Shown: positions 50,569-50,820, numbered from the stretch's first letter. The stretch is DNA of 64,000 nt from Candidatus Nomurabacteria bacterium (GCA_020632015.1 JACKGI010000003.1:65421-129420), one strand, 5' to 3'. Made by a program: numbers and translations. The notes: a model not told the origin generated them from the sequence alone.

Positions 50569-50588
50569 CACACGTACTTCAAAGAAGC

Positions 50589-50610
50589 AAAATTAAACAC
50601 ATAGCGGGGT
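50589..50610 (+). repeat. direct repeat copy 1 of the tRNA-fMet 5' flank plus its first 8 nt
   Basis: AAAATTAAACACATAGCGGGGT versus AAAATTAAATACATAGCGGGGT at 50736-50757. Looser similarity extends about 25 nt further upstream. Confidence 0.8.
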
Positions 50611-50612
50611 GA

Positions 50613-50631
50613 GAAAGTCTGGGAGACTTTC
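50613..50631 (+). repeat. TGGGA-loop hairpin H1
   Basis: GAAAGTC-TGGGA-GACTTTC immediately after the pseudo tRNA 5' end. Confidence 0.85.
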
Positions 50632-50749
50632 GCAAGACCTTGCCAGCTAATCCTGGAGTTTACGACAGAAATAGCGACAAGGTGTACAGATCTCGTAGAG
50701 ATGAGGAGAGATTCTCCAACGTTGCTTCCGGAAGTAAAATTAAATACAT

Positions 50750-50820
50750 AGCGGGGTAGAGGAGAGGTACCTCGGGAGGCTCATAACCTCCAGACCCCAG
50801 TTCGATTCTGGGCCCCGCAA
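50750..50820 (+). tRNA. tRNA-Met(CAT), initiator type
   Basis: Manual fold: A1xA72 mismatch, U8, A11:U24 in the D-stem (GAGG/CCTC), anticodon loop CTCATAA, T-arm CCCAG-TTCGATT-CTGGG, 3' end CCCCGCAA. No encoded CCA. Confidence 0.8.

Follow-up and report, generated by a model that had tools for sequence, protein, structure and literature searches.

A candidate structured insertion element inside a partial duplicate of the initiator tRNA gene in a Patescibacteria genome

We analysed a 64,000-nucleotide (nt) stretch of DNA from a Candidatus Nomurabacteria bacterium (GCA_020632015.1, JACKGI010000003.1:65421-129420; referred to here as the window, with positions counted from its first letter). The gene for the initiator tRNA, tRNA-fMet, is preceded in this window by a truncated copy of its own 5' end, and a folded sequence of about 93 nt, which we designate element E, splits this upstream copy between nt 8 and nt 9 of its tRNA portion. 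E is a member of a large and apparently undescribed family, with more than 100 copies in the flanks of tRNA, 5S rRNA and protein genes of Patescibacteria; full-text literature searches found no description of it. On balance, with confidence a little better than even, we favor the reading that E is a selfish, non-autonomous, structured, noncoding insertion element residing in a truncated duplicate of the tRNA 5' end, from where it would be cotranscribed with the tRNA and removed by RNase P. The coordinates of the features are collected in Table 1. All of the sequences used are metagenome assemblies.

The starting point was an earlier note on this locus, made from the DNA sequence, which described a duplicate of the 5' flank and first 8 nt of tRNA-fMet at the head of the leader. 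This duplicate is real. In the window, the 22-mer AAAATTAAAYACATAGCGGGGT has exactly two occurrences (50589-50610 and 50736-50757), whereas no such pair is expected from 100 dinucleotide-preserving shuffles, even with two mismatches allowed. With repeat finding the match grows to 27 nt, with an identity of 93% (50584-50610 and 50731-50757, a period of 147 nt), and a weaker likeness can be followed by eye to 39 nt (50572-50610 and 50719-50757), including the small CTTC..GAAG palindrome that the note had seen in both copies. We refer to the upstream and downstream copies as X1 and X2. The second copy ends at nt 8 of tRNA-fMet. In one relative (L006), copy 1 and the tRNA both read CGCGGGGT.

The host sequence that would be expected to the right of the insertion point also is present. 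E is followed directly by AGGAGAG, which matches positions +2 to +9 after X2 and forms part of a remnant of the D-arm. The tRNAs of two relatives (L054 and L015) have GAGGAGTGG, and their D-arm remnants share that T variant (GAGGAGTG and GAGGAATG). The leader thus is laid out as [-31..+8] E [+9..+25] [-31..+8][+9...tRNA], and the 147-nt period therefore reflects tandem duplication of part of the 5' region of tRNA-fMet (approximately -31 to +25, about 56 nt of host sequence) that carries a 93-nt insert in its upstream copy.

E comprises a 5' hairpin (H1), a central stem (P2) capped by a further hairpin (P3), and a 3' hairpin with a GTA triloop, and thermodynamic folding of the whole leader gives these same hairpins. 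The TGGGA hairpin described in the earlier note, GAAAGTC-TGGGA-GACTTTC, was found at 50613-50631 and corresponds to H1. Comparison of the sequences that lie between the repeats at different loci revealed a common domain, consisting of xGAAR, P2, the P3 hairpin, P2', GKAC, one nucleotide (N) and a hairpin with an invariant GTA triloop. In a first alignment (A1; 39 sequences), 92.6% of cells pair, compared with 62.3% after shuffling, and 20 of 22 pairs have changed on both sides, with a covariation score of 0.69 against 0.09 to 0.14 for slid controls. P3 provides the cleaner test in this alignment, because P2 and the 3' hairpin served to select the sequences and P3 did not. A larger alignment (A4; 108 distinct sequences) gave 91.7% pairing versus 68.8% shuffled and a score of 0.585, compared with 0.172 for shuffled and 0.07 to 0.12 for slid alignments. 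Here, 28 of 29 pairs have changed on both sides: 7/7 in H1, 16/16 in P2/P3 and 5/6 in the GTA hairpin. Among the pairs of E, G.U combinations outnumber A.C (125 versus 61), which favors a fold of the tRNA-sense strand. The unpaired positions are conserved as well, namely the 5' (R)GGTGAG, the linker GCAAG (101 of 113 copies), GTAC(A) and the GTA loop (88 of 113 copies). E appears as a three-helix junction with conserved linkers and a conserved 5' junction, G/UGAGAA. It has no terminal inverted repeats; its 5' end, TGAGAAAGTC, and the reverse complement of its 3' end, ATCTCTACGAGATCT, have no visible inverted-repeat relation (alignment A3).

Rfam 15 scans at the gathering thresholds of the whole window and 15 related loci, together with a permissive scan of 50400-53300, assigned no family to the leader or to the 3' modules described below. 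The matches overall were tRNAs, plus LOOT RNA and group I introns elsewhere, and no known ribozyme or riboswitch family matched E. We considered whether the GTA loop might pair with the UAC of the GTAC linker as a pseudoknot and rejected this: the loop stays GTA when the linker is ATAC, GGAC or GAAC, and the interaction is sterically implausible. The 5' strand of P2 contains TTGCCA and the P2'/linker reads AAGGTGTAC (within 50637-50687), both of which resemble the -35 (TTGCCA) and -10 region (TAGTGTAY) of the local tRNA promoter. The notion that E is a mobile promoter (TTGCCA in P2 with GGTGTAC) was discarded, as the spacing of 26 to 39 nt is too long.

Table 1. Features of the tRNA-fMet leader and neighboring loci (positions in the window)
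Feature	Position	Strand	Evidence or remarks
Promoter-like site, TTGCCA-17-TATTTT	50540-50568	+	Consensus scan; within conserved motif AAAATAGTGTATTTT
X1, upstream copy of tRNA-fMet 5' flank (-31..-1) and tRNA nt 1-8	50572-50610	+	AGCGGGGT at 50603-50610
Element E, ~93 nt	50611-50703	+	Model R1, 61.5 bits (50632-50707); model R2, 95.5 bits (50604-50707); covariation; thermodynamic fold
E, start (T)GAGA and H1	50613-50619/50625-50631	+	Loop TGGGA, 50620-50624
E, linker GCAAG	50632-50636	+	
E, P2	50637-50644/50676-50683	+	
E, P3	50646-50675	+	
E, linker GTAC	50684-50687	+	
E, 3' hairpin	50690-50694/50698-50702	+	GTA triloop, 50695-50697
D-arm remnant, GAGGAGAGATTCTCC	50703-50717	+	Real D-arm, GAGGAGAGGTACCTC; host sequence that continues the truncated upstream tRNA copy to the right of E
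X2, second copy of 5' flank and tRNA nt 1-8	50719-50757	+	Continuous with the intact tRNA
tRNA-Met(CAT), initiator type	50750-50820; 50750-50821	+	Rfam RF00005, 55.6 bits; ARAGORN (second range); features read from sequence
G+C-rich palindrome, terminator-like, just 3' of tRNA-fMet	50829-50861		Reported on - strand; symmetric; TTTTG after it on +
tRNA-Met(e) 3' module, second class	51716-51878	+	Terminator, inverted acceptor 3' strand (GTGTCGAC), H1 TGGGA (51753-51779), anti-T GGATTTG, core, 3'-end copy
P2/P3/GTA-hairpin domain with reduced H1 in tRNA-Asp 3' module	51973-52070	-	R1, 79 bits; R2, 37.7 bits

We fetched 80 syntenic loci of relatives, using as an anchor the nucleotidyltransferase gene located between the genes for the two Met tRNAs. 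Duplications of the 5' end are present at 8 of the 43 tRNA-fMet genes in these loci. Eight related genomes keep both copy 1 and E in the fMet leader, and the order is the same throughout: promoter, 5' flank, AGCGGGGT, GAG-H1, GCAAG, P2/P3, GTAC, GTA hairpin, GAGGAGAG..., spacer, 5' flank and tRNA. The earlier note had tied its interpretation to conservation of the upstream copy, and in this respect it held up. The insert ends 42 to 43 nt before the tRNA in six of these leaders (the window, L003, L006, L012, L015 and L023), with variants in L054 and L058. The H1 versions of the orthologous leaders are GAAAGTC/GACTTTC, AAAAGTC/GACTTTT, GGAAGTC/GACTTCC, GGAAGCG/CGCTTCC and GACAATC/GATTGTC. About 25 of the 43 orthologous genes have neither E nor a pseudo-copy, and degenerate or truncated copies of E occur in three loci (L016, L019 and L032). 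At least seven leaders (type B: L001, L002, L014, L031, L045, L058 and L059) hold the same pseudo-tRNA without E and retain the D-arm and the CTCATAACCTCC anticodon loop.

That E behaves as a discrete insertion or deletion is shown by two loci, L027 and L029, which are 97 to 99% identical around tRNA-fMet. They differ by about 83 nt, and these correspond exactly to H1-GCAAG-P2-P3-P2'-GTAC-GTA hairpin. Neither a duplication at the junctions nor a flanking repeat is present in this filled/empty pair.

The family extends well beyond the initiator tRNA. The domain model R1 found 75 copies in 81 sources; the window has only two, one in the fMet leader (50632-50707) and one in the tRNA-Asp 3' module. 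On the tRNA strand, R1 copies lie downstream of tRNA-Asp, -Met and -Thr and upstream of tRNA-fMet. The full-length model R2 gave 113 matches in the 81 sources, and a metagenome scan with a single P2 variant (GCAAGACCTTGYC...GACAAGGTRTAC) yielded at least 120 contigs. Among the matches listed, 56 of 82 metagenome copies have no tRNA in their locus. E is found within the first dozen or so codons of msrA (recognized by the GGCFWG motif) and rnhB (GIDEAGRG motif), upstream of msrA in five contigs and of rnhB in three. Further sites are tRNA-Ser, tRNA-Cys, positions nested in 3' modules and tandem arrays, and in three loci (L183, L189 and L199) E lies antisense at the 3' end of 5S rRNA. Its orientation toward the starts of downstream open reading frames (ORFs) shows no bias (28 versus 22 of 76). 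The left flanks end in GGGG, CAGG, GAAG, AGGG, TTGG, GGCG, GAGG or TATG, and the next nucleotide of the intact copy is T in 7 of 12 cases; judged from these flanks, insertion may prefer RG(T), with no fixed motif.

Two pattern scans for copies in viral contigs returned 41 loci, none of which was confirmed by R1 or had a tRNA, and these were set aside as chance matches. The tandem arrays (L133, L135, L155, L162, L166, L168-L170, L178, L191 and L195) have a unit of about 150 to 160 nt that reads ...CGTCTTTGCGAG/TGAGAAAG..E..GTTAAGGGA(A/T)..GGCAATCCAC.., and the hairpin loop in these arrays is GTT, not GTA. At one msrA locus (L142, 760-960, + strand), 12 codons of MsrA open a truncated upstream ORF that runs on through E, and its TAA stop codon overlaps the ATG start of the intact downstream msrA (TATGAGTAA), an arrangement that would allow translational coupling.

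The duplication seen at tRNA-fMet also recurs. At no fewer than 15 independent loci, 22 to 66 nt of host sequence abutting the 5' end of E is found again 17 to 138 nt after E, where it runs into the intact gene. The usual layout is [a..p]E[p+1..b][a..p][p+1..], with the intact gene downstream, and in L183, L199 and the window E is also immediately followed by the host sequence that belongs to the right of its insertion point. The lengths of exact identity between X1 and X2 are 22, 22, 22, 23, 26, 29, 30, 30 and 36 nt, and the identical stretch always abuts E.

We also assessed where transcription of the array would begin. The consensus scan reported a single promoter-like site near tRNA-fMet, located upstream of copy 1 as the earlier note had proposed, and the corresponding TTGCCA-N17-TAGTGTATNTT is kept in front of tRNA-fMet both in insert-bearing relatives and in those that lack the insert. 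In the insert-free relatives this promoter is 25 to 35 nt from tRNA +1, and in the window copy 1 occupies that position. The duplicated stretch begins downstream of the -10 box, and the real tRNA-fMet therefore has no copy of the promoter. No second promoter directly upstream of the real tRNA was found in the consensus scan, which a type of promoter specific to Patescibacteria could escape. A related motif, AAAATAGTGTACTCT, precedes the elongator tRNA-Met(e) at approximately 51600-51613. Since the only recognizable promoter lies upstream of copy 1, at the distance that separates promoter and tRNA in insert-free relatives, tRNA-fMet probably carries a leader of about 180 nt when first transcribed. 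Most likely the whole array would be transcribed from this promoter, and RNase P would cleave off the leader at 50749/50750. The predicted fold of such a pre-tRNA (-81.6 kcal/mol; z = -4.29) contains the three hairpins of E, a hairpin of the D-arm remnant, pairing between the two flank copies and the cloverleaf, with E and the tRNA cloverleaf remaining separate.

Duplications at the other end of tRNA genes form a related set of structures, which we refer to as 3' modules. Downstream of tRNA-Asp (52130-52203, - strand) there is an exact 20-nt copy of the stretch from the T-loop to the 3' end, 170 nt on (51960-51979 = 52130-52149). The elongator tRNA-Met(CAT), identified at 51641-51714 by ARAGORN and Rfam, has an exact 32-nt copy of its T-loop-to-3'-end and flank, 150 nt on (51847-51878 = 51697-51728), and the TGGGA-hairpin core AGTCTGGGAGACT recurs in its module at 51760-51772. 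No 3' module follows the terminator-like palindrome of tRNA-fMet in the window. Across the syntenic loci, 3'-end duplications with periods of 130 to 340 nt were found at 8/43 fMet, 14/69 Met, 17/55 Asp and 12/65 Thr genes. An interior of about 185 nt, differing by 1 nt, is common to the tRNA-fMet and tRNA-Asp 3' modules of L011, and the arms of each module match its own tRNA.

The second-class modules, such as that of tRNA-Met(e), also occur in relatives (e.g., L061 8232-8412, L003 3116-3306 and L011 3459-3760) and have no Rfam match. Their core is CGGARYGATG...GAG plus a long helix ending in GTGAC or GACCC, followed by the T-loop-to-3'-end copy, and E often is nested in their GGGGT^CGAGAG site. 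In L011 (3459-3760 versus 4996-5300), the 5' arm of each module reproduces, in perfect inverted form, the terminal 22 nt of its tRNA; a G.U pair of the tRNA is represented there by A opposite U, and H1 sits exactly at the T-stem/acceptor junction. A long palindrome results, with the tRNA terminator hairpin at its apex. These inverted arms could have arisen by template switching, among other routes. A hammerhead-like reading of CTGAA..GAA in the 3' modules was rejected, as it misfits the consensus by eye and has no Rfam match. Short leaders of 73 to 80 nt also were observed upstream of tRNA-Thr, -Met and -Asp (L061 8080-8157, L059 7498-7573 and 5492-5564, L034 6982-7056, L028 3271-3345 on the - strand and L001 4771-4850). 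These consist, in order, of a copy of the 5' flank and acceptor 5' strand, a mini hairpin (AAGA-GAAA-TCTT), an acceptor-3'-like strand, TGCAYTCGRAA, a terminator-like hairpin and the real tRNA, and they may be collapsed modules or attenuator-like leaders.

Taken as an insertion element, E would be acquired or lost as one block after ...RG(T) sites and would generate no target-site duplication itself, and its three-hairpin fold, as RNA or single-stranded DNA, could be what a mobilizing or processing machinery recognizes. Two routes would lead to the recurring layout. In the first (route A), a small circle, [a..p]E[p+1..b], would integrate by Campbell-type homologous recombination. In the second (route B), E would insert into a preexisting partial duplicate, such as a type B leader. 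The host gene would survive by either route.

Several observations weigh against E being a selfish insertion element of this kind. No transposase, reverse transcriptase or integrase recurs near E when ORFs of at least 100 amino acids within 1.2 kb of 80 metagenome loci are clustered; the recurrent ORFs are host genes only (MsrA, RNase HII and a vWA protein), and neither a Y1 transposase nor TnpB lies within 1.2 kb of these 80 copies. A search of 1.77 Mb for P2 halves 100 to 5,000 nt apart revealed no ORF-bearing or split E, only separate copies or a slightly longer P3. Among 20 ORFs of the window compared with Pfam, the only recombinases are two large serine recombinases (5.4-6.7 and 15.4-17.0 kb), approximately 35 to 45 kb from E. 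With no recurrent mobility gene and no ORF-bearing copy, mobility therefore is deduced from the distribution of E alone. The identity between X1 and X2 peaks right beside E and decays outward, which plain duplication followed by drift does not predict. The perfect inverted copies of tRNA 3' ends in the 3' modules, with H1 at the T-stem/acceptor junction, do not fit insertion plus duplication, and no model fully fits. The hairpins of E show compensatory changes among orthologous fMet-leader copies from seven to eight species, and, judged by the same 42- to 43-nt spacing in six species, the copy in this leader appears to be one old insertion. Such changes point to a fold maintained by selection at this site; a copy that was purely selfish and immobile would have no need of it. 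Finally, metagenome assemblies may misassemble short tandem repeats, yet this architecture recurs in many independent assemblies.

The compensatory changes are also an argument that E might instead be a functional cis-acting RNA domain. It could act as a processing signal, as a new ribozyme cleaving itself at G/UGAGAA or as a protein platform that defines or protects ends, and would thereby serve initiator tRNA maturation or dosage. The strongly conserved unpaired nucleotides and the excess of G.U over A.C pairs are consistent with this notion, as is the finding that within the tRNA transcription units of the syntenic loci E always is on the tRNA-sense strand; its retention upstream of msrA and rnhB likewise could be read in this way. 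However, E is missing from most orthologous tRNA-fMet genes and is degenerate or truncated in others, it has no preferred orientation relative to ORF starts and is antisense where it adjoins 5S rRNA, it falls into no known ribozyme or riboswitch family, and the genes that host it have no common theme. We consider a dedicated function the main alternative, though a rather unlikely one.

We regard as unlikely a further proposal, in which E is a new kind of bacterial mobile RNA-structured element, either SINE- (short interspersed element) or retroposon-like or a new self-cleaving or processing ribozyme, that would spread as a circle carrying a piece of the host gene and integrate by homology, so that each insertion rebuilds an intact gene. 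A guide-bearing variant of this proposal is possible. A guide has also been considered in its own right, with X1 plus E forming a guide-plus-scaffold RNA in which the host stretch joined to the 5' end of E, or in 3' modules the tRNA 3' end joined to its 3' end, would steer an RNA-guided protein to the neighboring intact copy, in the manner of the flank-derived guides in the omega RNAs of IscB and TnpB. The exact identity between X1 and X2 has a guide-like length (22 to 36 nt), always abuts E and decays away from it, and in the 3' modules 20 to 32 nt identical to the tRNA 3' end abut the 3' end of the element while the neighboring terminators have diverged. This proposal nevertheless strikes us as quite improbable. 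No candidate effector gene is near any copy, the two serine recombinases of the window being far off; the right-hand host stretch is duplicated too (L183, L199 and the window), a feature accounted for by duplication but not by a guide; and the guide would have the same sense as its target RNA. Known omega RNA scaffolds are much larger, and E, at about 90 nt, falls far below their size.

A reading built on the earlier note, that the leader is a dedicated tRNA-like module specific to tRNA genes, with a pseudo acceptor strand, H1 and a T-arm-like hairpin, and that it mirrors the 3' modules, fares worse still, and we give it very little credence. Copy 1 of the acceptor 5' strand is indeed kept in 8/8 leaders, and the acceptor-like and anti-T strands of the 3' modules track their own tRNAs (ATCGTTC/GAACGAT, TTCAAAT/ATTTGAA and TTCGATT/AATCGAA). 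The T-arm-like CCAG-CTAATC-CTGG does exist as a hairpin, but it lies inside P3 of E and is not kept in relatives. With an E-value of up to 10, the Rfam tRNA model matched only the four true tRNAs over 50400-53300 and missed the leader, ARAGORN found no tRNA in it, and it holds no 3' acceptor partner. In place of a tRNA-shaped module, the leader holds a truncated tandem duplicate of the tRNA 5' region (acceptor 5' strand and D-arm remnant) plus a general-purpose 93-nt element. The comparison with the 3' modules survives in part: the tRNA-Asp module contains the P2/P3/GTA-hairpin domain and that of tRNA-Met(e) shares H1, but E also resides in protein genes and in the 5S flank, and these copies, with the many that have no tRNA in their locus, largely refute specificity for tRNA genes.

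Least credible of all is an origin as attL/attR-type scars, in which an integrase would have inserted a genetic element into tRNA genes and the element would since have lost its interior: the 3'-module duplications do run from the T-loop to the 3' end (offsets -19 to -26), a classic sublocation of integrase crossover, and are patchy among orthologous tRNAs, but the units are only 130 to 340 nt with no integrase near any copy, the same element and layout occur at protein genes and 5S flanks, the fMet duplication covers both sides of the insertion point with E inside one copy rather than between two cores, the L027/L029 difference has no flanking repeat, the interior has an RNA-like covarying fold, and the two viral-contig scans yielded chance matches only.

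The tRNA-fMet gene at 50750 is the sole initiator tRNA gene seen in the window. The initiator hallmarks listed in the earlier note can be read from its sequence: an A1/A72 mismatch and A11:U24 are present, and in the anticodon stem (GGAGG/CCTCC) position 29:41 is A:U, with G:C at 30:40 and 31:39 only, so that two of the three initiator G:C pairs are retained. The window is a segment of a Patescibacteria chromosome that encodes LigA, GatA, PrfB, FtsEX, PyrG and type IV pilus genes, and its nearest relatives are Kaiserbacteria/Paceibacteria metagenome-assembled genomes. A LOOT RNA (RF03000, 76.9 bits) at 6842-6968 (+ strand) adjoins a large serine recombinase gene; the two recombinase genes are at 5409-6701 and 15426-16994 (both - strand), and a DNA methylase (9298-10578) and a SMODS-domain protein (11981-12928) are encoded nearby. 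This combination suggests an integrated island or defense region. Group I introns (RF00028, 57 to 63 bits) were identified in three related loci (L025 2846-3115, L028 752-956 and L033 2956-3181, all - strand). ARAGORN reports no initiator tRNA in these loci, and it is probable that their tRNA-fMet genes contain the introns. An R1 domain was found just 3' of the intron in L033 (2648-2723, - strand).

If E is indeed an insertion element, then Patescibacteria, whose genomes are among the smallest of bacteria, carry an abundant and apparently undescribed family of structured insertions of about 90 nt. The family would sit in the transcription units of essential RNAs (the initiator tRNA, other tRNAs and the 5S flank) and at the 5' ends of protein genes, with a partial duplication preserving the host gene each time. 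Its fold, a new one for RNA or single-stranded DNA, is well supported by covariation and accompanied by conserved junction nucleotides. For annotation, pseudo-tRNA ends, duplicated start codons and 150-nt tandem units would then be products of E, not assembly noise or extra genes.

Among known systems, E resembles the IS200/IS605-derived PATEs and the REP-RAYT repeats in being small and noncoding, in having neither terminal inverted repeats nor a target-site duplication at its own ends and in carrying a hairpin near each end (H1 and the GTA hairpin, both covarying) within a one-strand fold. The GTAC just 5' of its 3' hairpin is somewhat like the GTAG of REP sequences, and insertion may follow a short preferred motif, although the ..RG(T) of E is weak. 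It differs in that no Y1 transposase or TnpB is near any copy examined, in that a third, central helix (P2/P3) joins the ends and in the recurrent tandem duplication of a host segment, which is not a feature of peel-and-paste transposition. Unlike miniature inverted-repeat transposable elements, E lacks terminal inverted repeats and a fixed-length target-site duplication, and the long repeats extend to either side of the insertion point. An intact tRNA gene accompanied by a partial direct copy of one of its ends, with 3'-module boundaries in the T-loop, recalls attL/attR fragments; here, however, there is no integrase, the units are short, the 5' duplication spans both sides and the same arrangement is found at protein genes and 5S rRNA. 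Ribozyme-bearing retroposons (R2 with its hepatitis delta virus-like ribozyme, and SINE-like elements) offer an analogy only: they share a structured 5' domain abutting host sequence exactly, flanking direct repeats of variable length, high copy number, non-autonomy and cotranscription with a host RNA gene, which for E is presumed, whereas E has no reverse transcriptase nearby and matches no known ribozyme family. The Rickettsia palindromic elements likewise are repeats of about 100 nt with a stable fold that occur in protein and RNA genes of a reduced-genome lineage and spare host function. Those elements are tolerated as translated in-frame insertions; E, in contrast, interrupts an upstream copy, and the duplicated 5' segment downstream keeps the gene intact.

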